Source: Cycas panzhihuaensis (taxonomy: Eukaryota; Plantae; Cycadophyta). Taken from it: a stretch of DNA of 64,000 bases. Positions within the stretch are counted from its first letter, which is position 1. Each line of letters opens with the position of its first letter. Shown piece after piece: positions 13,791 through 64,000 of the stretch. Location of the stretch: assembly GCA_023213395.1 (NCBI GenBank), contig CM041465.1, positions 237,901,741 to 237,965,740 of the forward strand, written 5' to 3'. A program made the translations under genes and the position numbers. A model generated the notes under the pieces. It was not told the origin of the DNA and ran no database searches. It worked only from the letters and a program-made list of their open reading frames with translations.

Positions 13791-13837
<47 letters not shown>
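13791..13837. repeat. (TC)n microsatellite
   Basis: Direct inspection. Confidence 0.97.
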
Positions 13838-13841
<4 letters not shown>

Positions 13842-19802: not shown

Positions 19803-19855
<53 letters not shown>

Positions 19856-19879
19856 ATATGTGTGTGTGTACACACACAT

Positions 19880-19959
<80 letters not shown>

Positions 19960-19995
19960 ATGTGTGTGTGTGTATGTATCTGTGTGTGTGTGTAT

Positions 19996-20026
<31 letters not shown>

Positions 20027-20028
20027 TA

Positions 20029-20064
<36 letters not shown>

Positions 20065-20106
20065 TATATACATAGATACATACATATATATATATATACA
20101 TACATA

Positions 20107-20142
<36 letters not shown>

Positions 20143-20159
20143 CATATATATATACATAT

Positions 20160-20223
<64 letters not shown>

Positions 20224-20224
20224 G

Positions 20225-20298
<74 letters not shown>
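19803..20298. repeat. ~500-bp compound microsatellite (TA/TG/CA/TATG/GA)
   Basis: Direct inspection. It generates the spurious YI/IY ORFs at 19620-20460. Confidence 0.97.
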
Positions 20299-20300
<2 letters not shown>

Positions 20301-20449
20301 CTCACACATACACAAAAAGATAAAGTACAATGTGGATATAGGTGCAACATGCCATGAGGAAGGTAGAATCCTTATAAGGGTGTACAATCGCCTAATAAAA
20401 ACCAGTATATGCATAACCCCCGTATCCCTAGAGGGCCAACTTTTCTTTA

Positions 20450-25469: not shown

Positions 25470-25486
25470 TAGTGACCATACTGGGA
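25470..25486 (+). promoter_or_regulatory. degenerate tRNA-Arg-type PBS
   Basis: TAGTGACCATACTGGGA, homologous to the PBS of element A and followed by gag. Confidence 0.6.
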
Positions 25487-25524
25487 GTTGCCTTTTGTTT
25501 TTGCTGGTCATACACTCTTAAACA

Positions 25525-30287: not shown

Positions 30288-30894
30288 ATTCCTCCTCAAT
30301 GGAATAGAATCACTACACATTACCTTCAAGTAAATGGGCAAATTGAGCCATTCAACAAAACTTTAATTTTGATTCTAAAGAAGATGGTTACCAAGTCTCA
30401 ATAAGATTAACGCTTACAATTATATCCTTCCTTATTGGCTTATAGCATGTCCATTTAGAATACTATAGGTATAACTCCCTTCTCCTTAGTCTAAAGGTCG
30501 CAAATCATCCTTCCACTCAAAATAGAGATACCATCTCTAAGGTTGTTTTTAAAGGGTTTTATTGAGAAGGAATACCATTGCCAAGCATGCCTTCTCAACT
30601 TAGAAGCTTTGGATGAAACGTGGCTTATAGCTTATCATATGAACCTCAAGTAAAAAACTAAATCTTAGAAGGCCCATGATAAGAATTTGTGACCTAGGCA
30701 ATTCACCCCCAAGGATAAAATCCTAAATCTTGAGTACCTTCATGAACATCTCTAAAAGTTTTAGTACCAAATAGGTTGTACCTTTTATCATGCTTTAAAG
30801 TCTAACTAATAGTGCATATTACATTGCCACACTAGAGGGTCTTAAGTTTGAGAAGGATGTTAATGAGAAGATTCTCAAAAAGTTTTATAATTGA
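30288..30894 (+). pseudogene. pol: gypsy integrase core and pol C-terminus
   Basis: HYLQVNGQIEPFNKTLILILKKMV; LLAY...TPFSLV; ILPLKIEIPSLR; VNEKILKKFYN*. Confidence 0.85.
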
Positions 30895-31949: not shown

Positions 31950-33600
31950 ACAAATATAACTATGGTCTAACTCCCTCTCTTATAGCCACTCTCTCTATAG
32001 AATCTTTGAGCTCTCTCCCAGTGTTGTAACTCTCAAATATTAGGAAGGCCTTGCCTAGTTGCCCTCATCTTAGGCTCTTTATTATGATGTAGCCATATGA
32101 GTTTGGGATTGACTCTTGGATGACCTCTCTACTAATTGGTCTACTAGTTTATCATACTGAGTCTATAGTTGGTCCCTCTCTCATATCATACCTACTAATT
32201 ATGACTATAAATTTGTGATCTGTGTCTGTACCCTAGGGATTACCTACAAAGGGAACATAGCTACTAGGATCCTTGATCCTACCTAACCACCTGTAGCTCT
32301 CTAAGGCAATCTTATAGATCACTATGCTCTATTGACCCTAACACTATATCCCTTATTTCAAGGGCAAGTATGACTATGTGAGGGTGAGCAATGATGGGCT
32401 CATTAGTGTTTATCATAGGAGACTAGCCTTCCATATACACCATTATAAATAAATAATTAAGAATCTAGTAGATAAATTCAAGGGAAATCCCTCCATCTAT
32501 AATAAATCCCAAGCCCATGATAAGTAACTATGATGAAATATAAATTATCAGTTAATCAAAACTTTCTAGGTATAAAATCATGGTGCAAAAGTAAAAAAGG
32601 TTAGGATAAGAACTATACCATCATTGTGATCCTCCTCCCCAAAGTCCACTATTTTTAAATCCTCACCACCCTAAACACCTCCCTTCGCATCTACCTCATC
32701 AATAGGCTTACTTTCTCCATCTCCATCCTTGCCATTAGTTTCTAGATTTGGTTCATTGACATTAGAGTTTCATCAAATCCCTGCATAAGGGTTGATTATA
32801 TAATCATCAATGCTAAGCCTATCCAATAATGTCACATAAACCATCCTACTCCCTTATTTAAGAGCCCTGAGGATCCTAAATCAAGTGGACCACTTATTTA
32901 CTAGTGGGTCCCTATCATCCATAGGCTAAGGGCCTACCCTTAGGCCCATTCCCCTAAATATGTCAAATAACCAACACTATAATAGGGTGGAGTATAAAAA
33001 TCCTTTGTGGGATGCTACCCTAATCTAACTCAATTGTATCCTAACATTTACTATTATCAATGTGCCCTAATCTAATCTCTCACAAACCTCACATCATTGC
33101 ACAACATTTAACTAGTTCCTTAGGATCTCATTATAGTTTTGATGATGCAATATCCAAAATAAGTTCACATAGATGATGAGTTTCTAGACACATGGGATCT
33201 CAAAACTCATCATCCCCTTAACACTCCCTCTACATCTTTCCTTATACCCATGCCTATAAAATAATGTTACTGCTACTTATTGGGCATCATCTATGCTAAG
33301 AATGGTGCCTAATTTGGGTGGTGATCTTATGTAAGGAACTTACAACATCTATCTTATATCCCTTAGAGTAATCATGACATCCCTAATCAATGGTAACTAA
33401 AAATTTTAATACTAGAAATCCTAATGATATATAATATCAATCAGAAGAGCTCAATCTATGATGAACTACCTTAATGAAATGATCTTATGCAACCTAAAAT
33501 ATTTGAAGACATCCCTATTCTTATCATTGATCATGTTAGCGAGGACCAACATAGTTGAACCTATGTTTTCCCTTTTGTTAATTGTAGTGATTAGTTGAAC
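31950..33600 (-). pseudogene. PMD gene remnant, element D
   Basis: INKRENIGSTML...ALLIDIIYH*...LPLIRDVMITLRDIR*...PPKLGTI, collinear with the other three copies; ends approximate. Confidence 0.72.
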
Positions 33601-34416
33601 ATCAAATAAAAATATATTAGACAAATGAATAATACCATATTCACACCAATAAGGCATCAAACACATAGTAAACAACCCTAAACTAATCAATCTATTAGGA
33701 TAAATATCAAAATTTATGAATTACAAACTATCCTACAAATTTTCTTATCTATCCTATAATAGAACAAGGTATCCTATAATGTTCTTTATGGTATCGCTCT
33801 ATTTCTTTATGATACCACAAAGAATAATAGATCTATACCATGAAGATTTGCACACCATATAAAAATATAAATTTTGTAATAAAACTTTAGAAATTCACAT
33901 TTTAGATCAAAATGACCCATTAAAAATGACTAGGATGATAAACTACCCTAGTCCAGCCTTAAATAGAGCTTTTATCAGACTATGTATATATATATGTATG
34001 TATGTAGATATAGATATAGATAGATAGATAACCAAAAAAAAACTATAAATTTGTAAATTTATATATTCACCTCTTACTACCTTCTTAACATTTAGGGTAA
34101 GTCATATATTTACTTTGTTTCCACCTATGGTTTATAGTTTGAGTCTAGACTTATGGGTTGTTTAGGACCTTTAAATCTAAATATTTAAGTCTATTGTGGC
34201 CTCAATCATGATCAAAACCTACTCATCATTTTGAGAACCAAAATAAACCATGGAAACTTGTTATAATAGTAGTACTAAGCTGCCCATGGGATCCATGTTT
34301 GATCTATCTTTATAATCAAAGTGTATATATAAACATAAGCCCTAATGATGTTAGTTGATTCCTGCTCCATTCTTTTCATTTATCTATTTATTTTTGAGTT
34401 GTTATTTCATTTCTAC

Positions 34417-34822
34417 ATGGTATTAATCATCCATTATTGATGGGGGTAGACATGGGAATCATGGCCCTTCTACTACAACTTAAACCATCTAAGACCATTT
34501 AGGACACATCTTGATTTGCTCTAAGATCTACCTACCTATAATAACTAATAATAAAGTCAACTATATCACTATCATTAAGGCCTTAACCTATGCATTACAA
34601 GTTCACCATGGTTCCATTGTGTTATTTACTGACTCCCAACTTATTATCTTCTAGCTCACCTAAGTCTACCAAGTTCACTACCCCAAGTTATATGCCCTTA
34701 CTAATCAATCTTGGCTTCTTTTATCCTAATTATCTATAGTATCAATCTAACATGCCCAATTGGGACATAACATTGAGATAGATTAGTTAGTTACCTTCAT
34801 CCTTAAGCATTGCCTACCATAA
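34417..34822 (+). pseudogene. free-standing aRH remnant, element D; C-terminal half duplicated at ~34920-35190
   Basis: ATGGTATT start as in B; IIDGGRHGNHGPS, TNNKVNY, FTDSQL motifs; frameshift and stops. Confidence 0.8.
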
Positions 34823-37800
34823 GTAGGTGATTCTCCTCAAGGCCATCAAGCCCCCTAATAAAACTAGGCCCATATGCCACACATTCCATCTGCCTTATTA
34901 TCATCTTTAAAAGGCAAGTTTACCATTGTCCCATCATATTACTTACTAACTCCTAGCTTGTTATGTTCTAGTTCACTCAAGGCTACCAAGTCCACTACCC
35001 TAAGTTATGTGCCCTTGATAATCAAGCTAGATTGCTTTAATCCCAATTTTCTGTAGTATCAAACTAATATGTCCAATGGGGACATAACATTTACGTAGAC
35101 TAGTTTGTTACTTTTATCCTTGAGTATTACCTACCATACATAGGTGGGTAATTATCCTTAGGGCCATTAAGTCCCCTAATAAAACTAAGCCTACAAGCCC
35201 CAAAAACTAGCCTCCCTATTGTCAACTCTAAGGAGCACTCACTAAAGATGTTAAACTATGATGATAACCCTACGCTATCAAGTCCACAAGCAAGGTCAAG
35301 ATAATGTACCAACTTCCTCTTTACTCTTATAAGACCCTAAATGTCTACTCTTACTTCAACATAAAGGCAAAATACATTGTAAATTTATAAATTTATACAT
35401 ATCTTAGCCTAACTATAGCTTTCCAAAAGGGGGTATCTCCCTTATGGCATTCATAACTTTGTCTCTTTTCATTTGTATTATTCTTATTTATTACCCTTTT
35501 GAAAAATCAACCAAAAAATATTAAAACATTATAAAATAATAAAAAAATCTAAAAATATTATAAGATAATAGGAAACCAAAAATAAGAAAATTATAAAATT
35601 AAAAATGTAAAAAATATGGATCTAAGATGATCCCAAGTCCTTTGAAAGATGATCGTTAACGAGGTTAAACTGTAGTGATTATCTTTGAATTTTGGGTCTT
35701 TACATCCTGGAATTTGAGGTACCCCTTCTTTTACCTAAGTAATGTAGCTCTCTAGACTAAATCTTTAGCTACCATGCATAACCTTTTTTTGCTACTAAGA
35801 TAATCCCTTAATTACCAAAGACTACTTTAAGAAATAGCCACTAAGGAGGATAAATTATAGTGGCCCCATTTGTGTTCATATAGGTTTATCATAACCACAA
35901 GCTCGCTTTGCTTCGATTAGGTTACCAACCAATATTCTTCCTTAGTTAACGCATCTCTAAAATTCTTATCGATGAGGGTAAACTAAGGGCAATATTCTCT
36001 AACCACCTACTAATGAGGCTAAACTATAGTAGAATGCCTCTCCCTTTCATGTTTAAAGGACCATTGTAAGTCTAACTAGGGTATTATTAACCATCTTATA
36101 ATTATCATCTAAAGAGGTTTTATTACTAGGGGACAAGTGTTTCTCACAATCTGGGGACATCATGGATATCATATCAATATGTAACTAAAGGTATATACTC
36201 CCCTTTTAACTTAGATTAGTGTATTTTAGAGTAGTTATTTTATGAGCATATGCGTTGATCTCTTGGATGAGTATGATTGTCATTTATTATTGATGATTTC
36301 AACCATGGTCCATGGCTTTATTCTTATCCCTTTGAGCATGATGAGTTAAGAATAGTACCTTTGTAAGATATATTTCATCTTTCTCTTACTTTGTTAGCAT
36401 CCTTCTCCTTCTTAGCTTACTTTGTCAAACTTGTTTTCCTTTGTTTTAATATATATTTCATATTTTTCTTCTTATCTCACTAAGTTTATTGACTTTTTTT
36501 CCCTATTTCCTATTATACCAAACTGATTTATAATTTACTTGATCAATTTTTATAAAGAAATATTAAAAAAAAACTAGAGCTTCATGTTACCATAAAACAT
36601 CTTTATGGTACTACTTCAAACTTCATGGTATGACTCTCTTCAGTTGTAAAAATTTTTAATCTTGTATTTGGCTATGCATTAATGGTACTTAAATGTAGGC
36701 CTCATTTATGTCTCCATCAAAACCATGGATGGCCAATGGGTTTTGATGAAACCATGGGCTAATAAATATCTAATCCCATTATTTTCCTCTAAAACCATGG
36801 GCTTTTGCCCATGGTTTCTCCCAAACCAATGGGATTGAAACCATGGACCTAGCCCCTTACCTTCATCTATTTATAGCTTCTTTTTTTTTCATTGGAAAGA
36901 GAGGTTGAGTGGTAAGTTATTTGAGTTACCTTTTTGTTATTAGATTGTCACTAGATTACCTGATTTGACTCAATCCCCTTCACTAGCTTCTATTCTTGGC
37001 TCTAAGGTTGATTGTTTAATAGTGTTGGAGTATTTATTGGATAAAGGTGATAATCATTATCATCCCTCCATCCTTTAAAATGAGGCAATCCCCCCATAAA
37101 TCCATAATTTTCACCCTTCTTCCAAGATTTACCTTAATTACTTTTTTTGCCTTTTCATGCCAATTTGTTGCTTTAATTTTTACTTGCTTTCTTTTGCTCA
37201 TTTCAACTCCTTGGTATGTTAGTGTCTTATAGACTAATAGTGTCCTAGTACTACTTATTTAGTCTCTAAAATAAGTGGACAAGATGTCATTTTTTAGGCC
37301 CATTTCCTACCTGCTATTAGTTCTTTTGCATGCTGGTTAATTTCACTTATTGGATATCTTTTCCATCTATTTTTATTGCAATAGTTTGGTGTATGTTATT
37401 AACTCTTATAAGTGTTGGAGCTCTATAGTGTTATTATAGGTTTTAAAGTGTGTGGAGTGAATTGGACATCCTCCTCCCGTTCCTCCCTCTCCATCATCTT
37501 CCTATCAGACTTTGGTGCTTACTGCATAGTTATTATGCTATCAAAATTCCACCAAAAAAGATCATAATATAGATTACTACCAAAGTGCTTTCACTGTAAA
37601 TTTTAAGCATTTTTATTTTCCATACAAGTTTTTTTTCATCATAACTTAATCTAGCAAGTAGAAATGCTACTAGATTTTGTTTAGAAAAATTGATTTTGAT
37701 AATAGATATCGGTCTAACCCTTATTAAGTCTTATTGGTGATTTGATGAGCTATGATTTGACTTAAAAAAGGGTAAAACTAGTTTTTTGAATGTATCCTAC

Positions 37801-38264
37801 TAAGTATTTTCCCATAAATCCTATGTTTCTAGTTTTATTTACAAAATAAAAAATCTTTTAAATCATCATTTTGATTCATAGTTTTACTTTGAAAAGGAAG
37901 TGCTTAGGAAAAAATAATCTGCTTGCATGCTTGAACATTGTTATTTATCCTTCTTCACCCTTTCTTATAGATTTTTTTTTAACAAGAAAAGCAAAAAAGG
38001 GGGATTAGAAAGAAATTTTATTATTTTATTACATTTCTCATATTGCATTTCTATTTCTATTTTGCTTTGGAATGTGCTTTCTGAGAGTCCTAATGAAGGA
38101 GAGGATTGTACTTATTATAAGTTCTTGAATCTATGGGATAATATTTTATCTTCATTAGTCAGGTTATTCGCTCTTTTCATTTAATCAAAGTTACATGTTA
38201 GTTGCATTAAGTATGTGTTATGTTTGCTCCTTTAGTCTCTTTTAAGGTAGGGTCCTTCTTTTCA

Positions 38265-40500
38265 CCAAAGAGTGAGGGCAATTATCTTTTTACCCAAGTG
38301 TCATTGTCAAATGAGAGAGGTTCTCTTGTGCCTTTAGGTGTTGAATCTCTTATCTATATTCCAAATAGGCAGTTGAAGGGAGCTTACCCTCTCCACATAC
38401 TAATGTATGGGGCACCCTCATAGAGCTTGAGGTTTATTGTAACCAAATGTGGAACTATTGGACCACTCACATTCAAGTGAGAGCTACTACTAGTATTAAT
38501 AATTCCCCATTAACTTATCCACAAGTGGATCTATATTATGGTCTTAATTTCTTCAAACTTCTTACTCTAGCAATCATTTCCTTGTCTTTGTAGATCGATT
38601 TCTTCACTTTTAGGTCAAATAGGAGTCTAAGTTAGAATAGGTTAGTTAGCCTAAGGGGTTTAGCTATATAGGATAGATATGTAGTGATGTATAAGTTATA
38701 GGCATTCATGCTTGATCGACCCCCTCGCATTGACAAGGATTTTTGTATGTTAATTGGTCATTCCAAAGGCATTAGTTGTAGTTTGATTGATTTTGATTGA
38801 AGTTGTTGTTAGTTTACTTTTAATTCATTTTTCTCAATTAATGCATGTCTATTTCATCTACCTATCTACACCACATCTTTTGTTTCATTAATTAGTTGTA
38901 ATTAGTCTTTACTTTTCTCTTTTTTAATTTCATCTTATCTTGGCATGTTACATATACCTACACATTTCCCTTAGAGTATCTAGTCAAGTACCATATCATA
39001 CCCCCTATATTTACATACAAGAGATGTATGAGTGCCCCAATGGGGGGTGTATGTTCATACCCTTCCTTACTTAGGTCCCCAACACCCTTTAAGCCTACTC
39101 TAAGATCATGATCTGCACGTCCTTCTCCCTCCTCTCCCTTTCTATTTATTTGCATTCAACATTTACATTATATTATTGCTTGTGTGTTCTCTTATAAGTA
39201 GGTTGAGAAAAATGAAGGATAATAAACTTATTGCAAGACCTTGAATTTGTGGGGTTAAAAGCTTGATTCTAGTATAATCTTCTTTGCTACTTTTACTTAA
39301 TATAAATTTCATATGGATGCATTATATCATATTGTTATATGCTCATATAGTTTATGTTAAGTAGGGATTTGTCTCCCTAACAAAGGGGGCTATATTATTT
39401 CTACCCTAATTTCATCACCAAATGAGAGGAATAGTCTTGTGTCTTAGGTTAGTCAAGTCTTTTAGTCTATCTTTTGAATGGTCCAATGGAGAGAAGCTAT
39501 CCCTACTATTTACTCATACATGTGGTTTAAAGAGTTAAGTGAACTCTATTCATTCCATTAAAAGTAGTTCCATCTATCTTATTCACCTCTTAGGAACTTG
39601 AGACTCATTGGAGAAAATTGTGGGAAATGTTAAATTAGCTCACACTCATATGAGATGGGTTATTAGTATTAACAAGTTCTTACTATATTATCCACGAGTA
39701 GATATATTCTATAGTATTGAATCCTTTAGGTTTCTTGCTCTAATTGGTCATTTCTTTTTATTTCTAAATTAAGTCCATCACTTAGGGATGTTTAGTCATG
39801 TTGAGTTAAGATAGTTTATTCTCTTAGGAGAGATAGTTATACAAGGATAGGTAAGAACATTGATTGCATCGATGATTAGGACACATGTGCCCTAGAAGAC
39901 CTCTTAGATTTTGAGAGCTTTTATTAGGTGATGTTTGGTCCTCTCAAGTATATATGTTATTAATTTAGAATTAATTTTATTTATTTTCTTATATTAGATT
40001 AGATAACTTTCTTCTTTCTCTTTTATATATTATTGCCTTATCATCTACTTGCTTGTATCTTTGTGTATTGAATTTGCTATTTTTCTATTATTCTTAAGCA
40101 ATTACCCCCTTATTCCTTAAGCATGAGTACAAATCTAGTTTTCCTCTAGATTAGGATTGTCCTTTTGTCCCCACAACACATGTTTACGAGGTGCACAAGT
40201 GACCATGAATGAGAGTTTGAGATTATCCCTTCATGTTTGTTCTTTTTCCCTACATCAATTGATAAGTTATCTTTTGACCTCCCATTCTCATCTATCATCA
40301 TTCAATATCAATTCTCCCTTATTCTTTCATATATTTATAAATATTAAATTGTAAGCATAATGAAATAATATGTTATTTAATTGAAGTGTGTACTAGTTTG
40401 TAAACTTGACATTTTGGGTTCTCACATGAGGTAAGCATGTTTTATAAATGCGTACACTTTCTATATAATAGATAAAGATTGGTTATTCTTCCACTAGGTC
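38265..40500 (+). repeat. two diverged ~1.1-kb tandem units (LTR-like)
   Basis: 38265-38340 aligns with 39381-39450, and 38461-38660 aligns with 39635-39830. Right end approximate. Confidence 0.55.
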
Positions 40501-50134: not shown

Positions 50135-51248
50135 TGATATATTTCATTCATTACTCTTCTAATCGTAGTATATTAACATTACATTATAAATATAATTAAT
50201 CATGTAATGACTAATGAGTGGTTGATTGCATACATGTAACTTACATTAGAGGTGACTCCCCTTAATCAACTCACTAATTAATAAATTACATAATGAATAT
50301 AAAATAAATATTCTATTAATAATATTCTAACACTCCCCTTTAATATTTGCATCATTAATCCTAACACCTAACCCATCCCTAAAGTTTTAGAATTTATCCC
50401 ACGTTAGAGGTTTAGTGAGGATGTTTACTAATTGTTCTTATGTAGGCCTATAAATGAGATGGATATTACCATTTTAGATTAGTTCCTTTATGGAATGATG
50501 ATGTACTTTGATATGCTTGGTGTGTATATGAAATAATAGATTTATGGTTAGCTTTAGTGTACTATGATCATTATAGTATAATATTGTTGCATCCTCCTAA
50601 TGTAGACCTATATCACTTATAATTTTAAGGTTACTATAATTGTATCCTTGACTCATCTTTAATTAAGAAAGTATAATGTTTACTTTCTTCTTGCTACTTT
50701 ATGTTATATATGTTAAACTTAAACTGAAATAGTAGCCAAATATAAACCTTTTATTATTCATGCATCCTACCTAATCTAAATCTTATAGTTGATAAGCTCA
50801 AAGTTTTTGTAATGAATAAACTCCAATCTATACTATAATATCTACAAAAGTATCTAAAAAATCATTTTAGAGGGTAACTGGTGACTCTATTATGATATCA
50901 ACATGAATCTAAAAATGATGTCAATAGTGAATGAAATATCTAATCTAGTTGTAGTTTGATAAATAAGACTACTAACTAACTTTCTAAGCAAAGTGTAATC
51001 TATTAATTTGTCATTATTATTATAAGTCATGAGATTTTCTCCCATATTCATGAGGACTAATGCAAGCTTATTGTCTTACATTCTAAATTTCTTTAAAATC
51101 TCTCAAATAAATTTAGCTTATGAAATAAAGACTTTTCTAAGCCTTTGTTAAACTTTTATTCCAAGGAAGTATTAAAGTATGCTAAGATATATCATCTCAA
51201 AATGCTTCATCAAAACTTACTTTAAAATAGATCATTACTAGTAATTAG
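50135..51248 (-). mobile_element. old Ty1/copia element: 3' LTR (~50135-50332), PPT, RNase H, RT C-terminal half
   Basis: PPT AAGGGGAG then TGTTAG on the minus strand at 50332. QLVNILTKPL and TKHIKVHHH RNase H motifs. The RT frame continues at 58896-58974. Confidence 0.8.
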
Positions 51249-51660
51249 TGTGAGAAAAGAGTCACATATACAGTGTTAACAGGATCTATATATGCAAGAA
51301 ATAACAAGAAATAACACTGCACAGGTACACATTAATTGACAAGTGGAAAACCCCTTTCGGGGAAGAAAAACCACCTCCTAAATCTAATTTATTAATAAAG
51401 AATAAACACCATGCTACAAAACCACCATCAACTAAAACCAGCCTTTAAATAGGCATTTAGACAACCCTCCTAGATTCTTGGAACGATCTCCATGAATCTA
51501 GGAGATGATCGTTGGAATGCAGTTCCACATTTTAATGACCTTCCATAAATTAATAAAATAAACCTAAGTTTAAACATTATAATCACTTAAATTACATATT
51601 AAACATGTGACTAAATAATGACATAAAAGAAACATAAAGTTTACATTATGTCATCTAATA
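51249..51660 (-). repeat. 3' LTR (412 bp)
   Basis: Direct repeat of 58477-58895. Manual alignment gives ~25 substitutions (mostly transitions) plus 10- and 17-bp indels. PPT TAAAGGGGGA adjacent at 51661-51670. Confidence 0.96.
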
Positions 51661-51739
51661 TCCCCCTTTAATATAAACTTTTATACTGGAGAGAAAAAAA
51701 GAGCTTCATCACGGTGATCCCCCTTTGATGGAGACTTCT

Positions 51740-54700
51740 TTTATCTACAACAAATCTCTAAGATTTAAAAACTTTGCTTCAGTTAAAGACTTCGTAAAAA
51801 TGTCGCTAATCAGAATCATGGACAATAAGACAAAGAAACAAGATTATCAGTAACTAAATTACGAATAAAATGCTGATGTAATTCAATATGCTTAGTCCTA
51901 AAATAAGAAACTAGATTTGTTTCTATAGTAATTGCACCTTGATTATCAACTTTAATTTTAATGGAAGAGTTTAGAGACAAACCAATTTTATTTAGTAAAT
52001 ATTTTAGCTAAAGTGCTTCTTTACCAGCTTCAACAAGTGCACGATATTCCACTTCAGTTGTGGATAAAGCAAGTGCCTACATTTTCTTACTGGACCAAGT
52101 AATAGGTGAGGAATCTATAAAAAATACATAACCTGAAGTAGATTTATGATCAGTTATATCACCTACCCAATCAATATCAGTATATCTAATTAACGTTAGT
52201 GGTTTATTACAAAAATTATAAGTTAGACCATAAAACATAGTATACTTTAGATATCATAAGATACGTTTAGTGGCTTTCCAATGAGATTCATATGGTTGTT
52301 GCATATAATGAGAACATAAAGCAACAGCATAAGAAATGTTAGGGTGGGTGTGAGTTAGATAAATAAGACTACCAATTAGTTGTCTAGATAGTGTAGGGTC
52401 ACAAAGAGGTGATGAACAATCAGTAGATAGCTTAACTTCTGCTTATAATGGATTAGATACAGGTTTAGCATTTTCCATGTTAAACCACTGAATTAAACCT
52501 AGAATATACTTAGGTTAAGATATTGTTGAATTTGAATGATTTTGATAAACTTGTAAACCAAGGAAGTAATGTAATAGACCTAAATCGGTCATTTCAAATT
52601 TGTTCATTAAAGTATATTTTAGATGATGAATATTATGAGTTGATGATCCAGTAATGATAATGTTATTAACATAGAGGATTAAAATAGTAAGATTTTCTTT
52701 TCCATGTTTAAAATAAAGATTTGGATCACTAATACATCTAGTGTATCTAATGTGAATTAAATAATCGTCTACTTTAGTATACCAAGCTTGAGGAGCTTGT
52801 TTTAAACTGTAAATAGATTTTTTAAGTTTGCAAACTAAATTAGGATTTTCAATAAATCCAGGTGGCTGTGACATATAGATCTCTTCTTTGAGATCACCAT
52901 TCAAGAAAGCACTCTTAACATCCATTTGGTGGATTTACCAATTAAACTTGGCTGTAAGAGCAATAATTATCTTGATTGTGTTCATCTTTGCAACAGGGGC
53001 AAAGGTTTCATTATAATCAATGCCATCTATTTGTGAAAATCCTTTTGCAATAAGGTGAGCTTTATATTTTTCAATTGTGCCTGTTGAGCTATATTTAGTC
53101 CTATAGACCCATTTACAGTCGACGACATTTTTCCCAAGTGGGAGAGGAACAAGATCCCAGGTTGAATTTTTAATTAAGGTATCAAATTCAGTCTGCATAG
53201 CATCCTACCATACAGGATTGTTACTAGCTTGTTTAAATGTTTTAGGATCATTATTATCTATTATTTTTGCCATTAAGGTAAAATTAACATGTAGTTTTTA
53301 TGCACGTGTGTATCTGGTATTAGTAGGATTACCTACATCAGATTCAGCATCAGCAAGCATTTTTGTTGCCCAAACAGGTTGCTTATGAGTAACTATATCT
53401 GAAGATGCAGGTTGATTTGATGTACTAGCCTGAAGGGAATGATATGTTTCTATGGGTTCGAATAGAGTCCAATTTTGGACTTGAGTTGATGAAGATTCTA
53501 TAACTTCTGAGTCAACTTGTTTATCAAAAGGGTCAACTAAATAAGTGTTGGTTAACAAATTTTTAACAGGAAGTTCTATATAAGTAGATGTTGAAGAAGA
53601 TCCTTCTTCATCAAATATTATGTCACACAAAATAGAAATTTGATGCGTGACTGGATCTAAGAGTCTATAAGCTTTACTCTCTTTGCTATATCCAACGAAG
53701 ATGTATTTTTGACTTGTTTTGTCTAATTTTTAACGTTTTTCATGAGGGATGTGTCCCCACGCAATATTGTTAAAGATTCATAAATGATTGACAGATGGTT
53801 TTCTTCCAGACTATTTTTGTTCTAGAATAACATTCTGTAAACATTTACTAGGTAAATGATTTAATAAATAGTTAGAGTAGTTAATTACTTCTGCCCATAA
53901 TTTTAAATCTAGATTCTTTGCATGTAACATGCAACGAGTCATCTCAACCAGAGTACGGTTTTTGCATTCAGTAACACCATTTTGTTAAGGTGTATATGCA
54001 ACAAAATGTTGGAACTGAATTCTGTGTGATTTACAGAAAGAAGAAAATTTCCACTTAAATATTCCTTAGCATTATCAGATCAAAATATTTTGATTTTTGA
54101 ATTTGATGGATTTTCAACTAATGTTTTATATTCAACAAAAATGTCAAACACTTAACTACGTGTTTTGAGCATGTAAACCCAATATTTTCTTGAATAATCA
54201 TCTATAAATGTAACTAAATAACGAGAACCTAAGTATGATGTTACATGGAAGGGTCCACATATGTCAAAGTAGATAAGTTTAAGTGGAGTAGTTACTCTGA
54301 ATTGAGTTTTATTTGGAAATGGATCCATGTGTTGTTTGCCTATCACACAAGCTTCACAAACACCATAAATAGTGTTTAAGAGTGGTAGACCATGAACCAT
54401 TTCATGCTTTTTTAAATATTGCAGTTTGCCATAACTTGTATGGCCAAATCATGCATGCCAAAGTTTGTTGACTGAGTCAGATTTGGTAATAAAGGTACTA
54501 AAAGATTTTGTTTTATTATTTTGAAGACTTGTTAGACTATAGAGACCTATATTATGATCAACAGGTCCTGAGGCAATACATCTGAATTTGTTTAATAGTT
54601 CCTTAATGATAAATTTATTTTTCTAGAATTCGACAACAAGGTCTTTCTAATAGATTTGATAGACTAAGAGTAGGTTTGGTAACAAACCAGGTACGTAAAA

Positions 54701-55943
54701 GACATCCTTAATTGAACCATCTTTTAAGATAACGTCACCTGATCCTTTGACTTTAAGTTGATTACCACTTTTGAAAGAAATCTCTTCTTCAAAGTTTGCA
54801 TTAGATTGATAAGTAGTTAAATTTTTCTAGTGTCCAGTCATGTGATGGGACGCACCAGAGTCAAGGATCCACTGTGGTGGTTAATTTAAAGGGGCAATAA
54901 ATGCAGAAGCTGTTGCTGCTAAAGAGCAATTATGAGATTGACGATTTTAGGTTTGTGATTGAGAATGGGATTGAAAATAGTATTGAGGTTTATTTTGCAA
55001 TCCCTTAGAAGCTTTCCATGCTTCTGAAGCTATTCTACTTCTATAGACATCAATAGTATGACCTCTTTATGACAATAGGTATAACTAGTGTTCTGAGAAG
55101 AAGTTGCATTGTTCTTATTATGAAAGAATTGATTGGAAGTATTTTGATGTTTAGTTAGACCAGAATATTTAATATTGTTTTGTGAATTAGACGATGAACC
55201 TCTATAAGGTTTCTGAAACTTTAGATTACTATGAAAATTGTTCTGTTATTTATTTTTAAATTGTGGCTTAGTTTTGGAAAACAAAACCTGTGAAGGATCT
55301 TTTAATGCGCTTGTTTGAATTAACATTGTCTGATGTTCAATCAACTGGTTTGTCAACTGATTAAATGTTATACGTGGGTTGCCAACTTGTTGTCTAGTAA
55401 TTTTGTAGAGATTAAAGTGTTTTAGTAGTTTATTTACTGCAAGACATATGAGTGTGTCGTCGTCTTTAACATGCGTAGTTATTTTTTCAACATCACCTTC
55501 TTTGGTTTTAGATTTGATGCAGTTATCTAGATCTTTATTAATTAATTAAATTTTAGTTTAAAAATCTACAATATTAGAAAAATCATCAAAAGTAAGGTTA
55601 TATAATTGATGTTCTAGGACAGCCACTTGATGTGTATCAACCTTGTCACATTTTTCTTGCAAGGTTTTCCAGACAGTGGCTAAGTCATCTTTTTCAAAAA
55701 ACTGCCAACTGATTTTTGGTAAGAGTGAGTTTAATATGGTGCCTAAGGCGGCATCTGAGTTCATCAGATATACCATAAGACTCTCAGTAGCATCTATTTT
55801 TGGTTTTTAAAATTCACCTGTCATATATCACCATATCTTTTGCTATTTGACCTGATGGGATATGCGATTCCTCCAATCGGCATAGTTTGAGCCAGTTAAT
55901 ACTGGAATTGGAACGTAGGTGATTGTCCCTAGCATTAATACCA
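51740..55943 (-). pseudogene. gag-pol: copia gag-pol with stops and frameshifts
   Basis: LTGSNYADW gag start; zinc knuckle at ~55040-55090; WILDSGASHHMT at 54838-54873; CEACVIGKQH and FIDDYSRK (IN); [10 protein letters not shown] and LYVNNI (RT); TKHIELHQHFIR and DIFTK (RH). Confidence 0.95.
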
Positions 55944-57277
55944 TATTGGGAGTGTTAAGGTTTGATTGTAGATTGAAGAGTTATAAAGGTGATTGGAAAA
56001 ATAATCACTTAGTGAAAGTGCTTATCATGTTAACATATATAATTCAAGAAGGTATTCTAGTACGCATTAGTTGAATTTAAGATAAAATATCATATGTTTG
56101 TAGACAAATGAATAAATAAACGACCTCTTAAAATATTGCCTTAAGCAGTCCCTTTTGATAAACAATCCTCTTTGATAAATAGTCCCCCTTTGATAAACAA
56201 ATTAGTTGCCCTTACTCTAAACAAATTAAAAGTCCCCCCTTGATTAAAACAATTCTAAAAAAATTCCCTTTAAAAAATGAATGTTTGCTAAAAAAATATT
56301 TAAATTCCAAGAATATGAAATTAAAGCACTTAATTATATGTTGTAATTGATTTAGTTAGATGGATTAAGATGGCAATAACTTTAAACATATCAAACTAAT
56401 TTTTAAGATATTAATTGTCCTTAAATAATTAAGCTTTATTTTTGAAAAAAAAAAGGGTATATAAATGTAAATTAAAAGATATTGAATTTAATATCATAGA
56501 GTTTTAATAATCTAGGTATCAAATATTAAACTGATAATAATAGATGCTACATTTGATCTTAGCTAAAAAACTGAGAAAAGTATATATATAATCTTATAAT
56601 GAGTGTTTTAAAGATTATATATACCTTATATATGATATATAAACAAATAGAAAAATTAGTTGGGGGGGGAATAGTTTGTTTTGATTTTATAAATAAATGT
56701 GATACTATATAAGGGAGGAAAGGATTCTATAATGATTAATTAAATGTCATAGATTAAAGAAATGTTGATTTAGCCTAAGTTGATTATGCTAGATTTTAAA
56801 TAACTTGTTAATGTGATTAAGAAGGTGTTGAGTTGTAAATGAAGGTTATTAGCTTAGTGTACTAAGAGATTAACTTAAAAGGTAATAAGAAAAAAAACAA
56901 AGGGTGGGGTGTAATATTTACCCTAAAATTTGATTAAAAAAGGGTTTTTAAGTAAATGTGATTAAAGGGGTGTAATAAGGGGGAAGGTATCTTGATTAAA
57001 ATATAATAAGGAAGGGAGGGTTTTGATTAAATTTTGTAAATCAAAATGTAATAAGTAGATACTTATGTTAATATTAAGGTATTGAAGAAGGGTTATTAAT
57101 AATAAAAGATAAATATCCTAAGGTTTGATTTAATGTAATACAATACCTTAAAGAATTATAAATGGTAATGTTTAATCAAGAGTTTATAAACCAAATATAA
57201 TTATTCAGGCTCGTGAGGAGTTTATTAATCAAATAATATTTGATTAAAATTAATAACATAAATATGATTAGGTTTAA

Positions 57278-57290
57278 TATATATATATGA

Positions 57291-57379
<89 letters not shown>
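57278..57379. repeat. (TA)n microsatellite in the copia leader
   Basis: Direct inspection. Confidence 0.97.
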
Positions 57380-57380
<1 letters not shown>

Positions 57381-58464
57381 CTTAATAAGGCAGACCCGAT
57401 GAAATTATCTATTTAATAAAACCAAATTATATCTAAATGTTAATTGGGATCTGAGGGGGAAAGGAAAGGAAGAAACCCTACCTAGTGCGTTAGTTCATGA
57501 CGACGCATCTTTGTTTGCAGGCTGGATGACAAAGATGGAGATGGCAATGGCGTTCAACAAGAGACGTTCGAGGCTATCAAGAAGATCGATCCCCATAAGA
57601 GAGTCAATGTCCCGTGGCTTTTGCTTCAACCCCAGAAACTGCCTTCGTCCATCCAAGGATGGTGATTGTGGCGTTGCCGAGCAGAGGCAGCGAAGGAGAG
57701 GGGTTTTATGAGCTCTATCTTCATTTGGTTCTCTGTCTTCACATGAGGTTGAGAGCTCTTGTGCTGAACTGCCCACAATTCCCAAAACAGGGAGAAACGG
57801 AGGACATCAACAAATATTTTGCTAGCCTTTCAAAGGACTTCATTCAGCAGAAGAAAGGGAATTATGAATAAAGCACGGGAGCGAGTTTGCATGAATCTAA
57901 TGCTTCGCCAAGGGTAGGGTAGGGTTTAAGGAATATTAATAAGGAGTGTTGCGTTCATAAGTAAATTAGGTTTTGATATGTTGTTGCTCAGGTTATGTCA
58001 TAAGGGTTATCCTGGAAAAGATAAAGTGCTATTATTACAACAGGCTGGACTATCCTGTATTCTTGAACATTTTGGTATTCAAGATACCACATGATAAGGA
58101 GCTAGAATATAATTCCAAAGGCTGGGCAAACATGACAGTGGAGAGGGAGTTGCGATCAAGTAAGAGGCAGAGAATTGGATCCACAGGTGCAGATGTTTCC
58201 TTTACAAACTCTGATTCATTGGGACAAGCAACTGATCATAAAAAGTAAGAAGTACAGTCAAGACTTGATGATACACCTATGCTAGATTGTATGACACAAG
58301 AATATACTTTCAATAAGGATTCAACAAATGCAGGCAAGAGTGATGGCCGAAAAATACATATTGAGGGTTCTAAGGAGGATAGAAAGGAAAGAGATAACTT
58401 AGGAGGATATCATAGCGATGCAAAAGGAGAAGAAGATGGGGTGCAATGATGGCTCTAATGAGAA

Positions 58465-58476
58465 GCTCTGATACCA
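58465..58476 (-). promoter_or_regulatory. PBS, tRNA-iMet
   Basis: TGGTATCAGAGC on the minus strand immediately after the 5' LTR. Confidence 0.95.
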
Positions 58477-58895
58477 TGTGAGAAAAGAGGCACATGTACA
58501 GCGTTAACAGGATCTACATATGCAAGAAATAACACTACACAGGTACACATTAATTGATAGGTGGAAAACCCCTTCTGGGGAAGAAAAACCATCTCCTAAA
58601 TCTAATTTATTAATAAAGAATAAATACCATGCTACAAAACCACCATCAACCAAAACTAGCCTTTAAATAGGCATTTGGATAGCCCTTTTAGATTCTTGGA
58701 ACCATCTCCATGAATCTATGAGATGAATAAATACTAAGGAGATTCGTTGGAATGCAGTTCTACATTTCAATGACCATCCATAAATTAATGAAATAAACCT
58801 AAGTTTAAACATTATAATTACTTAAATTACATATTAAACATGTGACTAAATAATGACATAAAAGAAACATAAAGTTTACATTATGTCATCTAATA
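58477..58895 (-). repeat. 5' LTR (419 bp)
   Basis: Direct repeat of 51249-51660. Confidence 0.96.
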
Positions 58896-58974
58896 ATTAG
58901 CAAATCATTAATATATAAGATTAGAAAGGTTACAAATATATTCTAGAGATTATATATAGGCTTGAGTTAGTTAG
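58896..58974 (-). pseudogene. RT fragment of the old copia (YxDD region)
   Basis: Joining across the TSD to 51243 restores FLILYINDLLITSND. Confidence 0.8.
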
Positions 58975-61683
58975 TGGACGCGCGTCTATGGGATAGCCAC
59001 TTAACTAAATAGGTATGGTAAGAGCAGGTGATAATATGATCGAGAAAGAGACCTATAAGTAGGGTAATTACCACGCAGGGTGCCCCATACGCCAGAGTGC
59101 GAGTTCGGGACCTACAATGGAATGTAGCTACCTAAGGGTGATCCCCCCACTTCAAATAAGAGGTGAGGAGGCGCAGGGTTAGCCTGGGTTGACATAAAGG
59201 AAGGATCTTCCCACCCTTGGATGGCCAGAAAGGGAAGGAGAGGAGACTTTGAGGGTTTCCCTAGAGCAACGGGAAACAAAGAAGGATAGGCAAGTAAGCG
59301 GCCTATGAACAGGGTCACCTTGGTTACCCAGCGAAGCGATGAACCAAGGGAAAATAAGAGGGATGACCCAAGAAGGTGGGTCAAGGTATGCCTAAGCAAA
59401 CTAACCAAATACACAAAGGACAAAGGGAAAAGGAAGCTTGCATGACAAAGGAGGGAAAAGGTGAAAGGGGCAATTCCTAAGACCTTTTCTTATGAGTAAA
59501 GGAGATGCATGTAATGAAATAAATAAAGCATGAACCAAAAGCAAAGTTAATTTTCCCTTTTAATTTCCAATGAGTTCATTACTACTTATGTAAAGGAAAT
59601 TCAAAAGGAAAGAGTGGATAAGGGAGAGCGGAAGCGTGTACCTGGGCCAGAAGCATGTCGTGATGATGGCGCTCCCAAGGGACACCCAAACTACTCCACA
59701 AGGCACGGCGGTCGTGAAGCGTCGTGGCGGATCGGAATAAGGGGCTCCCTTACCTTCCCCAGAAAAATACTAAAGTATAAAACCAAGGAAAGAAAGAGAC
59801 CAAATACTAACAATAAATGGAGTATGAAAGTACAACATGCATGGAAGCACTTACCGGTAAAGGGATAAATGAAGAAAGGTCCTTTGCACTTTCTAAACAC
59901 CTGCAAGTAGACGGCAACCTCCCCCTTCCTAGAGAAAGGGTACTAACATGCAATGACAAGATCCTAACAATACATGTCTATGTAATACAAATATAAACTT
60001 AAACACGTATATGTTAGCATCAACACAATGATGATAATATGTAAAGGAGGACAACCAAAGTAAAAGGAAAGTAACCGGTAAGCCTCGAAATGGCCCACCT
60101 CCCGCAAAGAACAACACCAACCTCCCCCCAAGGCCACAAGGCAGTGAGGGCAAGGCCAAGAAGGATGGCTGAAAATAGTAGCAAGGGAGTTGAGAGGAGC
60201 CAAAGAAGACCTACGGCAAGCCGGGGTGCTATGAAGAGCAAACCGGGCTGCCGGGAAGAGAGTTGGGCAAAGAACGAGCGGTCGGGACTTATATGAGTTG
60301 CCCGGACCTAAGTACAAGCCCTCAAACTAATACTGCAATGTGTGACAGTGCTGATTTCAGCGGCTAAGGAAGGCCCAACAAACCCTTATTTGAGTGCCAA
60401 GGATAGCACGAGGCAAGAGGGAAGGTTTAGGGGGATTAAAGCCGTTTGAGGAGCGTGGAAGGTGGTGCGGAATCCACCCAGCTCTCTCCCAAACCCTATG
60501 TCAACCCTCTGTGTCGCTACCTTGAGCAACAAACGCAGGCAAGGAGGCACTATAATAGGAGTAAAAGAGTCCAATATAAAGAGGAAAATAACCCTCACAA
60601 AGACAAGCAAGATAGGGCATCAATTGCATAAGAAAAATAACTTAAATAAATGAATACCTGAGAGGAAGAGGAGAGGTGCTTGCCTCAGCCAAGGGCTGGT
60701 AAGGAGGGGTTGAGAAATCAGCCCAAAAACTATGGTGTAGCAAGTTTGGGACCCTGCTAATGGAGTTGGAGGGAAAACACCTGCACTTGGAATGCTTAAT
60801 GGCTGCCCGGGGTAAGAATCCACTGAAATCTCTCCAAGGGGCCCTCTCCAAGGTGCATGAGGGGCTGGGAAGATGTCCTAGCCACACCAAAGGAGAGCTA
60901 GGCACCAGAGGAGAGATGCAGGTCCTGTAGCAGCAGCAGGGTAGCGGAGAATAGCAGAGCACAGCGTGATCTCCTTGAGAAGCAATCCAAAAAGTGAGCA
61001 AAAAGTCCTCAAAAATGAGTAAGTCATGACTTAAGTACCCAACCCAAACCCTAAAGCGAGAGATTAGGGCGTGGCTGAGAGTGAGTTAAGTCATGAGACA
61101 TGTGGCAATTTCACAATAAATGCGAAATTGCCACAGCAGATTTTTAAAAAATAAATTAGAACAGTCATACCGCTGTAAAATCTGTGGTACCGCGGATTTT
61201 CCAGCGGTACCACGAAAATCGTGGTGATATTCGCTCAGATGTAAAACCAGGCCCAGCTAGCCAGTCTAGGCTGGGGGCAGATGATAAAAAGAGCTAATAG
61301 AGGGCTGAGACACCTACCTAGGGGTAAACAAGCTAACAAACAGGTCCAAAGGAGCAAAAATAGGGCTCAAATGGTGTGGCAAGTCAACCAAATGATGACA
61401 GGTCATCACACGGGCAGAGGTGGCACAAGCCAAGTGGATCTTGGAGTGAGGGGGGGCAGAATGCAGGAAGTGGGGTGGCCACTAGGGTGCCACACTTGCT
61501 GGGAGTGTGCCCCTGCTATAGTCGTCATAGGCTAAAATAAGTGTAGACGAGGGCAAAGTCATCTACAAAGCCACAAACATGCAGACATACAAGTAAACAC
61601 TCATCAAAAGAAAGTGATGACAAAGCGAGAAACATACCCATTTCACCGAGCCGCACAGATCCATTCCTGGAAGCTGGGAAACA
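58975..61683 (-). repeat. 3' LTR of element F (2709 bp)
   Basis: Minus strand starts TGTTTCCCAGCTTCCAGGAATGG and ends CATAGACGCGCGTCCA. Confidence 0.85.
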
Positions 61684-62092
61684 CTGCCACCTTGGCAGCA
61701 GAGCCTTGCCACTTGGAAGCCTGGTGCGATGGCAATGCCGCAACACAATCACAAGAGTACATGTGTATATAGATATATCAATCAAGATTATAACAATAGG
61801 CAAGGGCACCGACAAGTGTCATGGCAGAATGCGTGGATACAAATGTAGCAGTGGAGACAACATAGGGGCTGCCTATGAGCCACCTGGGAATCGACTAGAG
61901 AAATAAGAAAGGCAAGGGGGCTGCCCCCACCACAAAAGATACAGAAGGATATGCATAACTAAATAAAGAGTAAACACGGGGTAGGTGCCATAGTTTTACC
62001 TCATTAGCAGCTAAGTTTTGGAGGTGTGAATGGGTCACAAAGCAAAGTGTAGGACAACCTGGGGCTTGGGCGACAGGGCAGCCAGACAAGCC

Positions 62093-62512
62093 TCAGGGAT
62101 GGTCAGCAAGGAGTAGAAGGCGACGCTCAAGGATGAGGTGAATGAGACTATCTACCTCGGCATTGAGGGCCCAAGGGATATGCTGGATATCGACAGAAGA
62201 GAAGTGAGCCAGGAGAGATCTAGTGGCAGAAGCAAGAGTCCTCAAGTGAGGGCATCGCACCTGGTAAACCTGGGTAAGATGAGACACCACAACTTGAGAG
62301 TCACAAAGCAAAACGATGGATCCACAATGGAAACAGAGAGCATCAGTAAGGGCTTCAATCATAGCTATATATTCGGCTTCGTTGTTAGTAGCCTCTGGGA
62401 GGAAGATCCCAGAGTGAAGGAGATCGTGTCCAAAAGGGCTACGGAGAATCCATGCAGCAGCAGAAGGTCCAGGGTTATCAAGCGCTCCGCCAAGAAAGAT
62501 GTAGATGGACAT
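62093..62512 (-). CDS. stand-alone archaeal-type ribonuclease H (RNase HI-like), 139 aa from the internal ATG
   Basis: Open frame (track ORF 62093-62584): NPGPSAAAWIL, TNNEAEY, DSQVV, HIPWALNAEVDSL. The ATG at 62512 corresponds approximately to the starts in B and D. Confidence 0.88.
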   Translation of the reverse strand: MSIYIFLGGALDNPGPSAAAWILRSPFGHDLLHSGIFLPEATNNEAEYIAMIEALTDALCFHCGSIVLLCDSQVVVSHLTQVYQVRCPHLRTLASATRSLLAHFSSVDIQHIPWALNAEVDSLIHLILERRLLLLADHP

Positions 62513-63030
62513 GGGTAACACAAAAGTCTTGATAGTCAATCGATAATGAAAGCAATACTCAAAAGGCAAGTAGAAAATAGCCATGAAGGATAGGAGGTCC
62601 TAGCAATGAGGTTACCCAGGGCGAGAGCAAGTAGTCCAATCACCAGCAGAGAGTGGTCAGAGGAAAAAGCCTCCTAGGACACCAAAAGGTCGCTTTGGAA
62701 AGCGAAACATGCCCCCGGGCGGGGAGCATTCCCTTTGGGGACCCCAAGAGTGAGAAAGGACTGCGGAAACAAGTCCAGGGTGATGAAACGAGCCAAATGA
62801 GTATAAACTCGGGTATGCACAGGAGTGGCACGCAAAACGAGACAAAAGAGCCCAAGAAAAAAGTGTAAAAATGAGGCACCATAAATGCACCTGCGAGAAA
62901 GTGTAAAAAGGGTGTCAAGAGAGCATAACAGGCGACAGGGCTAGAAGGCAAAGACAATCAGGGAAACAGGACAGTCCCAACGGCTGTCACAGAGCTCAAA
63001 ACGGAAGAAGTACCCGTTGGGGCCCCCACC

Positions 63031-63037
63031 TATATAA
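63031..63037 (+). promoter_or_regulatory. candidate TATA box of the PMD gene
   Basis: CCTATATAAGG, ~165 bp upstream of the exon-1 ATG at 63198. Position-based inference only. Confidence 0.45.
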
Positions 63038-63197
63038 GGAAATCGAATGGAAAATAGATTCATTTTCACCGGCTCTCGTGAGAAACCAGAGCCATTCCCT
63101 TACGCAGTAGAGTGCCACCTAACTTCGGAGGCATGCAGGGAGAGATCAGATCGTTGGATCGAAGATCAGAGAGAGCCAGCGGGATCAGCAGGACGAG

Positions 63198-64000
63198 ATG
63201 GCGATGGCGAGACCGGATCTAGTGAGTGGATGTCACTGAACCCAACCCATTTCGAAGTTTGAATTTCATTGGTTTTTTTGTAATTTTTGTGTGGTTTTAG
63301 TGCCCCTTATGGGCAATCAAAGGCCTCTCAGAGTCTGAATTGAACCCAGAAAGAGGCGGGGACCTAGGCACTAGGGAGCCCTTGTCCCGATGGGCCCCAC
63401 GAGGTCCACCAGAAGAATTTTTTTTTGTTTTTCAGGGCGAAAATCCCCCCTTTTAGGGGATTGCCATTTGTACCACGGTAATGATCATGGTACTGCGATC
63501 ATTACCGCAGGACCCACCCTGAACTTAGCAATACCGCTAAGTTCAGTGCGGTACAAAGCCAAGCAAGCAGAAAAAAGGGCAAAAGGGCCCAAAGAGCCCC
63601 AAATCACAGGCAGAGAGAGTTTTGAGAGAGTAAGGAGTGTTAATAACTGACATAAAGCTAACTTTGATCGTTTTTTATGTGGATAGGCTGTCATCATGGC
63701 GGATAACCGCGAGAACGTAGGTATGGCCATGTTGAGCTATATGGAGATGGCATCATAGGAGGACAGGGAGATCCTACAAAGGTGTGGCCTATACAAGGCC
63801 CTCAAGACACCCCAGTATGCATCAGATCAGAGGTTGCTAGTTGATATAGTATCCCATTGGGATAGGAGGAGACATGTGTTCCATCTACCGCAGGTAGGTG
63901 ATGTGATGGTCACGCCGAGAGATATACGGTGGATACTAGGAGTACCGACGACAGGGAGGCCGGTGAGACTGGGGACACTGCCTAACACCGAGGCAGCACA
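63198..64000 (+). pseudogene. spliced PMD gene, element F (exon 1 63198-63221, intron 63222-63686, exon 2 from 63687; one TAG at 63756)
   Basis: MAMARPDL|AVIMADNRENVG...LLVDIVSHWDRERHVFHLPQVGDVMVTPRDIRWILGVPTTGRPV. GTGAGT donor, CTAAC branch-like site, TAG acceptor, phase 0. Confidence 0.85.

Follow-up and report, generated by a model that had tools for sequence, protein, structure and literature searches.

Three copies of an LTR retrotransposon in the window (the whole 64-kb stretch of DNA analysed here), labelled B, D and F, end in the same order of parts: an antisense PMD gene, a free-standing ORF of ~140 codons for an additional archaeal-type RNase H (aRH), a PPT-like tract and the 3′ LTR. 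We regard these elements as a variant of TatIII (structure #3), a class assignment drawn from their aRH and PMD traits. Our preferred reading, held tentatively, is that they are TatIII-type Ty3/gypsy elements in which the PMD gene would be spliced and driven by its own promoter, and aRH would be made from a spliced, LTR-driven RNA that skips the PMD gene. The layout bears on a published question, how aRH works from a separate ORF once the native RNase H (RH) has decayed (PMC10508981). The locus and its relatives offer two exclusive answers, a spliced env-like RNA or a divergent promoter, and the exact junctions that they predict can be searched for in existing RNA data.

Elements in the window and their 3′ ends

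Old LTR retrotransposons lie nested in the window, and the parts that define the ends of the family are as follows.

A, 137–6677, minus strand: 5′ half of another member of the family, with the 5′ LTR from 6677 to ~3553
A, 3548, minus strand: PBS-like site, followed by decayed gag and protease
B, 11629–14990, plus strand: 3′ LTR (far end placed by eye)
D, 30312–30894, plus strand: C-terminal part of the integrase, with its own stop at about 30894
D, 36127–36145, plus strand: PPT-like tract and start of the 3′ LTR (36138)
F, 58960–61683, minus strand: 3′ LTR, ~2.7 kb (far end placed by eye)
F, 59753: sense donor-like motif in the LTR
F, 61684–61694, minus strand: PPT-like tract directly before the 3′ LTR

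The initial annotation had placed the PMD and aRH genes between pol and the 3′ LTR; the 3′ LTR was recovered in F, B and D, and pol in D only. Behind aRH, a purine-rich PPT-like tract is followed by a common motif starting with TG in F (61683), B (11629) and D (36138); it lies some 0.4 kb from aRH in F, 0.5 kb in B and 1.3 kb in D. In A, about 3.1 kb of LTR precedes the PBS-like site, gag and protease, and its homology to B and F begins exactly at the post-PPT motif. The LTR start is therefore set downstream of aRH, and a location of the cassette inside a giant LTR or upstream of gag is ruled out on the same ground. Another PPT-like motif in D, at ~31080, was rejected as an LTR start, with no LTR homology behind it.

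The integrase of D (30312–30888) matched the polyprotein of a related locus, L002, by tblastn (1e-14), and gave no match in Pfam, PDB or a word-index protein search. Its stop lies 3.5 kb upstream of aRH on the same strand, with the PMD gene between them. D is the only one of the three aRH-bearing copies in which pol or integrase is visible; the pol of F lies beyond the window, that of B is missing, and neither RT nor native RH of the F-type family was found within the 64-kb window. The decayed PBS-like motifs at 3548 (minus strand) and 25470 (plus strand) resemble what we take to be a tRNA-Arg site, and no complete element is present in the window.

Over 2.1 kb, a stretch that takes in the spacer between the two genes, B and F align colinearly at 58% identity. 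The family of F is abundant: in each of three DNA runs, 92,395 to 105,387 contigs matched F at no less than 80%, with 30 of 30 bins covered (these are contig counts, in which depth gives no copy number).

A fourth element, C, has the PMD gene and, as the initial annotation had stated, no aRH, a finding borne out by an RNase H profile search of the window. That aRH of C might have been moved to 37–50 kb by a nested insertion was considered and rejected, the same search finding no RNase H there. The homology of C to the B/F spacer ends near 23100; beyond it come the PBS-like site (25470) and gag sequence akin to that of A (23100–27700), a layout that either a nested insertion or a deletion of aRH may explain. 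An LTR-like start at 42641 is a weak match.

Several other repeats occupy the window. A Copia-like element on the minus strand (51249–58895; ~430-nt LTRs, 88% identical) adjoins the end of the F 3′ LTR, and a decayed copia-like element on the plus strand at ~15000–19300, similar to 50325–54360, contains an ORF with a repeated NKEP-type peptide (15151–15465). Just past the 3′ end of the C PMD gene lies a compound (TA)n/(CA)n microsatellite of about 750 nt (19650–20400), which yields several spurious long ORFs. Two diverged direct copies (59%, about 800 nt) of a further sequence lie at 38092–40048.

The antisense PMD gene and the free-standing aRH ORF

The two genes and the spacer between them comprise the following features.

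F, 63198–63221, plus strand: predicted PMD exon 1, ATG plus seven codons
F, 63222–63686, plus strand: predicted phase-0 intron 1, 465 nt, GT..AG, proposed from conservation
F, 63687–64000, plus strand: PMD exon 2, truncated where the window ends, with a stop codon at 63756
B, 7560–9980, minus strand: decayed PMD gene, its last exon with weak coiled-coil matches
B, minus strand, predicted PMD parts: exon 1 at 9980–9957, intron at 9956–9462, exon 2 at 9461–8259, intron at 8258–8140
C, 20450–22733, minus strand: decayed PMD gene in which both introns are again predicted (22709–22217 and 21211–21101), with no aRH behind it
D, 31950–34077, minus strand: decayed PMD gene with a donor-like site at 34077 and predicted intron 2 at 32618–32528
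F, 62513–63197, no strand: non-coding spacer between the start codons, 56% colinear with the B spacer, with no codon periodicity
F, 62802–62807, plus strand: TATA motif facing PMD, in a conserved block
F, 63031–63037, plus strand: another TATA-like motif, 167 nt upstream of the exon-1 ATG and not kept in B
F, 62093–62512, minus strand: aRH ORF, 139 aa, open, with an upstream in-frame ATG at 62584
B, 10710–11132, plus strand: aRH pseudogene, 140 codons, three stops, first Asp at residue 8
D, 34417–34840 (end approximate), plus strand: aRH pseudogene, eight stops and one frameshift

An antisense PMD gene beside a separate sense aRH ORF with its own ATG had been proposed for B, D and F, and RVT_3 and tblastn matches confirm it. 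The PMD genes of B, C and D lie on the strand opposite to that of aRH and match F by tblastn (7e-25, 6e-19 and 5e-10). The Pfam evidence for the PMD itself is partial: the match of F (1.2e-6, 28.4 vs 34.9 bits) falls below the curated cut-off, its domain being truncated, as do those of the PMDs of P0002 and L001, and no Pfam PMD match was obtained in B, C or D (0/3). The window PMD matches the PMD of L001, and a word-index protein search with PMD returned one relative.

The gene likely contains introns, to judge from the conservation of its predicted splice sites. The donor-like site of intron 1 occupies one alignment column in all four copies, its GT intact in F and D and its first base changed from G to A in B and C. 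The acceptor AG stands three codons before the same position in three of the four copies, and a second GT..AG intron of 91–119 nt is predicted in B, C and D. An ATG 24 nt before the donor is in frame with exon 2 in F, B (9980) and C (22733), and the Met at the start of exon 2 is missing in C and D. D has no in-frame ATG at the expected place of exon 1, and its intron-1 acceptor is decayed. Short inverted motifs lie in those introns of the window copies that correspond to the predicted PMD intron 1 of L001. Contigs of X24, a run that we guess to be RNA, covered 30 of 30 bins and crossed donor and acceptor unspliced, and none among 15 of the 78 joints matched 63221–63687; this is a mixed, high-copy family, for which such contigs bear neither way and are uninformative on expression. 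An intron-containing antisense gene inside an LTR retroelement is thus predicted, of a kind that ORF-length filters, for example the 250-codon rule of REXdb, would tend to miss.

The predicted first exon also explains the distance given by the initial annotation, which had put the start codons ~0.7 kb apart in B and F. With the ATG that stands 24 nt before the PMD donor, the ATG-to-ATG distance is 686 nt in F and 730 nt in B; the spacing holds only with this 8-codon exon, the PMD domain itself starting about 1.2 kb from the aRH ATG. In D the spacer has roughly half this length, 340 nt separating the donor from the aRH ATG.

The aRH ORF of F matched Pfam RVT_3 at 1.2e-14, and those of B and D, translated with X at the stops, at 8e-10 and 3e-8; this agrees with the RNase HI-like fold anticipated earlier. 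By tblastn, B (57%) and D (43%) are homologues of F. A profile built from 43 of 150 database matches (those of ≤160 aa) found RNase H in the window only in F, B and D, where D has a second, partial copy in tandem; the stretch of D from integrase to PMD contained none. This duplication (34598–35231, 78% identical) covers the 3′ two-thirds of the D aRH plus flank, its second copy of the 3′ part lying at 34915–35231. The best PDB matches of F were 4e19, 3u3g and 3hst, far above E. coli RNase HI, and the first of these is an RNase H1 (7e-18) that we take to be haloarchaeal. A word-index protein search with aRH gave no match, and a search of the ESM Atlas gave generic RVT_3 clusters only.

The aRH frame of F is open, yet the codon for the first catalytic Asp is missing and a Trp stands at the Arg position of the family. 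The first Asp is kept in B, D and the database relative P0022. Every acidic residue of the DEDD set is kept by one window copy or more; none combines all four intact with the Arg, and the aRH-typical Arg is found in none of them. Free-standing RNase HI proteins begin at the position of this ATG: the Asp is residue 8 in B, as it is in 32 of 131 Met-initiated relatives from the database.

Every copy in the window is damaged, with 1 (F), 14 (B), 13 (C) and 18 (D) PMD stops in the stretches counted and CpG depletion rising in the order F (0.56), B (0.15), D (0.06). Codon signal was therefore tested with transversions, which methylation decay does not produce. In aRH, third positions held 28 of 52 transversions (F–B), 42 of 83 (F–D) and 45 of 83 (B–D), with p from 0.002 to 7e-5. 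For PMD, the counts were 30/49, 36/61 and 38/74 against F and 82/150, 80/173 and 93/170 among B, C and D, an enrichment in six of six pairs (p 0.001 or lower); the pairwise tests, for both genes, share copies. Intron 1 (32/98) and the spacer (40/132) showed no enrichment, one non-coding control was also phase-biased (22/50), and codon signal did not reach significance in the last PMD exon (p 0.085 and 0.83). The initial annotation had named a dN/dS near 1 as evidence against its gene pair; among the window copies, pN/pS was 0.31–0.56 in both ORFs versus 0.67–0.92 in six non-coding control frames, with synonymous sites near saturation between B, D and F (pS 0.63–0.70). Judged by these substitution patterns, both ORFs have been under purifying selection across the diverged copies.

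Expression of aRH

A 145-aa stand-alone aRH, P0034 (cluster of 530), led to four loci that represent two elements, L001/L002 and L003/L004, 55–62% identical to each other. In both, pol is followed after 93–121 nt by a separate aRH ORF (35–45% identical to F) and then by an antisense PMD gene, tail-to-tail with aRH. The polyprotein of L002 comprises protease, RT, RH and integrase and terminates ahead of aRH, and the protease and integrase of these relatives are related to those of the window family. Read with what we presume to be the first-Asp motif of native RH, the RH of L002 has Ser at the expected Asp (by eye). This agrees with the decay of native RH reported for separate-aRH elements (PMC10508981). 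A scan of viral contigs gave one weak partial match, L005.

The detachment of aRH from Pol is supported by its own ATG at a homologous place in F, B and D (3/3), by the integrase stop in D and by the lack of codon signal in the spacer. We consider it improbable that aRH is still made with Pol, through a splice from the integrase end that yields a Pol–aRH fusion or through stop-restart translation. Short plant introns have a characteristic size and an AT-rich make-up, and the 93–121-nt, AT-rich (68–69%) spacer between pol and aRH in L002 and L003 would fit one. A fusion would also account for the entry of aRH into the particle, which for a free protein neither a spliced RNA nor a divergent promoter explains, and lineage III has aRH at the Pol C-terminus in the available text of Ustyantsev 2015 (PMC4408406). 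Against a fusion, D and L002 have a similar integrase C-terminal motif and then a stop, inspection by eye found no good in-frame donor before that stop, and the aRH start ATG is kept in all five elements. Leaky scanning of the genomic RNA is likewise unlikely, because D has 90 ATGs on the way from the integrase stop to aRH.

A promoter of its own within the spacer is very likely for the PMD gene, as suggested by a PMD-facing TATA motif common to F and B and by the same layout in L001. The TATA stands in the same context 396 nt (F) and 392 nt (B) before the exon-1 ATG; the conserved block is missing from D. In its layout the L001 PMD gene is like that of F: a palindromic TATA and a short exon precede a predicted 465-nt GT..AG intron, and a second intron follows. 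The L003 PMD has a matching acceptor and second-intron sites. No aRH is found in L001 on the far side of the PMD promoter, and its exon 1 lacks an ATG; the promoter layout is therefore independent of aRH, and aRH in turn has no need of a place behind that promoter. An array of GC-rich short repeats lies inside the predicted intron 1 of L001 (L001:3560–3800). A sigma-70 promoter scan was set aside as not applicable to a plant.

In L002 and L003, the aRH ATG is immediately preceded by a pyrimidine tract and CAG, which close the pol–aRH spacer (L002:5889–5984, L003:3538–3661), against a background of 0.0066 and 0.0035 such sites per nt in these loci, and this apparent 3′ splice site predicts a spliced aRH RNA in elements of the INT–aRH–PMD type. 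A sense donor-like motif lies 1.9–2.0 kb into the LTR in three of four LTR stretches (A, B and F; shuffled mean 0.10–0.15), and none at that distance was found in the D LTR stretch scanned. We favour a spliced LTR-driven RNA for aRH because the relatives show an acceptor at the aRH ATG and the LTR motif is kept in A, B and F. The mechanism of the relatives need not carry over to the window aRH, since a quick tree (48 rows; 107 matches longer than 160 aa left out) does not join the window clade to that of L002 and L003. In this tree F, B, D and P0022 form a group (support 95) with the RNase H of P0008 (142 aa) and P0051 (104 aa) as its sister group (support 98). The LTR donor could instead belong to an ordinary leader intron. 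Another sense donor-like motif occurs about 43 nt into the LTR of A (6633, minus strand) and B (11672, plus strand), with no counterpart in F or D. Acceptor-like sites in the window spacers (4, 3 and 1) are at chance level (4.6, 4.4 and 1.2 in shuffled sequence), and a conserved acceptor there was rejected.

The closest competitor, which we rate a little below the spliced RNA, is that the spacer is a bidirectional promoter, from which a PMD mRNA would run one way and a short unspliced aRH mRNA ending in the 3′ LTR the other. The head-to-head order is kept in three copies near synonymous saturation, AG is missing directly before the aRH ATG in all three (0/3), and the ATG position noted above, with Asp at residue 8, suits a free-standing protein. 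Palindromic TATA-like motifs in F and D can be read both ways, and an internal promoter for an antisense ORF is known in maize Grande (PMC7264820). Against this, the sole TATA conserved between F and B faces PMD, B has none at all facing aRH, and D lacks the conserved block; L001 has the same PMD promoter, palindromic TATA included, with no gene opposite, and C retains PMD with no detectable aRH. The initial annotation had proposed an independently transcribed module with such a promoter. Its independence very likely holds for PMD; a promoter shared with aRH does not find support, no aRH-facing TATA being common to the copies. Nor does functional coupling, in view of relatives that are tail-to-tail and have aRH 93–121 nt behind pol with CAG at its ATG; from this arrangement, the head-to-head order is no obligate module. 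It seems rather less likely than not that a replicative RNase H has turned into an accessory gene under one bidirectional promoter with PMD, so that hybrid cleavage and a chromatin factor would be switched together, apart from gag-pol.

Under the favoured spliced-RNA reading, PMD would be an independent antisense gene with its promoter in the spacer and its introns spliced; these introns would persist through retrotransposition, being antisense to the genomic RNA. aRH would be reached env-style, by joining a donor in the LTR leader to a site before aRH, and the free protein would supply RNase H activity in place of the degenerate native RH domain. The head-to-head order would then be a lineage-specific reshuffle with no co-regulated module. 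That aRH is a dispensable passenger with no role in the replication of the family seems very improbable: C lacks aRH and the open F copy lacks a catalytic codon, as a passenger might, and against this stand the clear codon-position signal in all three pairs and the first Asp kept in B, D and P0022.

Comparison with known elements

The additional archaeal-type RNase H typical of Tat elements is present in the window family (RVT_3 in F, B and D; PDB matches). Of the traits of TatIII, or structure #3, aRH lies downstream of integrase, as shown in D, and in a separate ORF, and an antisense PMD extra ORF occupies the 3′ region in four copies (with a sub-threshold Pfam match). The order described for lineage III in 2015, with aRH at the Pol C-terminus upstream of PMD, is not found here, and the window order is reversed with respect to L001 and L003.

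Structure #3 comprises clusters H (Pinaceae) and I (Cycas, Ginkgo) of Biryukov & Ustyantsev 2023 (PMC10508981) and corresponds, in the available text of PMC6317226, to TatIII of REXdb, with a tRNA-Arg or tRNA-His primer site, a 5-bp TSD and a size of 12.7–17.3 kb. The former paper reports for Pinaceae, Cycas and Ginkgo an aRH that occupies an ORF of its own behind integrase, poses its functioning as a question, places these aRH beside haloarchaeal RNase H in its tree, and gives separate-aRH elements a share of 68% among the Tat elements of one cycad and of about 20% in Pinales. The window elements share the stand-alone aRH ORF after integrase; PMD, the 3.5-kb distance from integrase and the expression route are unmentioned in the text and supplement of PMC10508981 covered here. 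Cluster I elements may already have the head-to-head order, unannotated, the sequences and figures of that paper being outside this comparison.

Lineage III, as far as the accessible part of PMC4408406 describes it, comes from gymnosperms; aRH follows integrase there, and the 3′ end carries an antisense PMD extra ORF. Its aRH differs in being at the Pol C-terminus before PMD, and its PMD lacks a coiled coil, whereas the window family has PMD between integrase and aRH (D), predicted introns and a weak coiled-coil last exon (B). The L001/L002 and L003/L004 elements differ from the window in their INT, aRH, antisense PMD order, tail-to-tail, and in the CAG at the aRH ATG. Gene23 of maize Grande (PMC7264820, in part) resembles the window PMD in being an antisense accessory gene placed between pol and the 3′ LTR under an upstream promoter of its own, and differs in having neither a PMD nor an adjoining stand-alone RNase H; on spliced antisense transcripts, the portion of that review considered here only calls for a search. 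The PMD domain is common to Gypsy PMD-A and host MAIN/MAIL1 PMD-C (PMC5418596), the window match being sub-threshold. In the available section of that paper, Gypsy PMDs form clades apart from MAIN/MAIL1, and silencing function is shown for host PMD-C only.

The initial annotation had left open whether this organisation was already described. The head-to-head order, introns in a Tat PMD gene and an acceptor at the aRH start were not found in the literature, where figures, GitHub sequences and subscription papers (e.g. Steinbauerova 2011) could hold them. The parts are already published, the stand-alone aRH in PMC10508981 and the antisense PMD in the available text of PMC4408406; what is new, relative to these systems, is the head-to-head order, the predicted exon structure of the PMD gene and two testable routes of expression.
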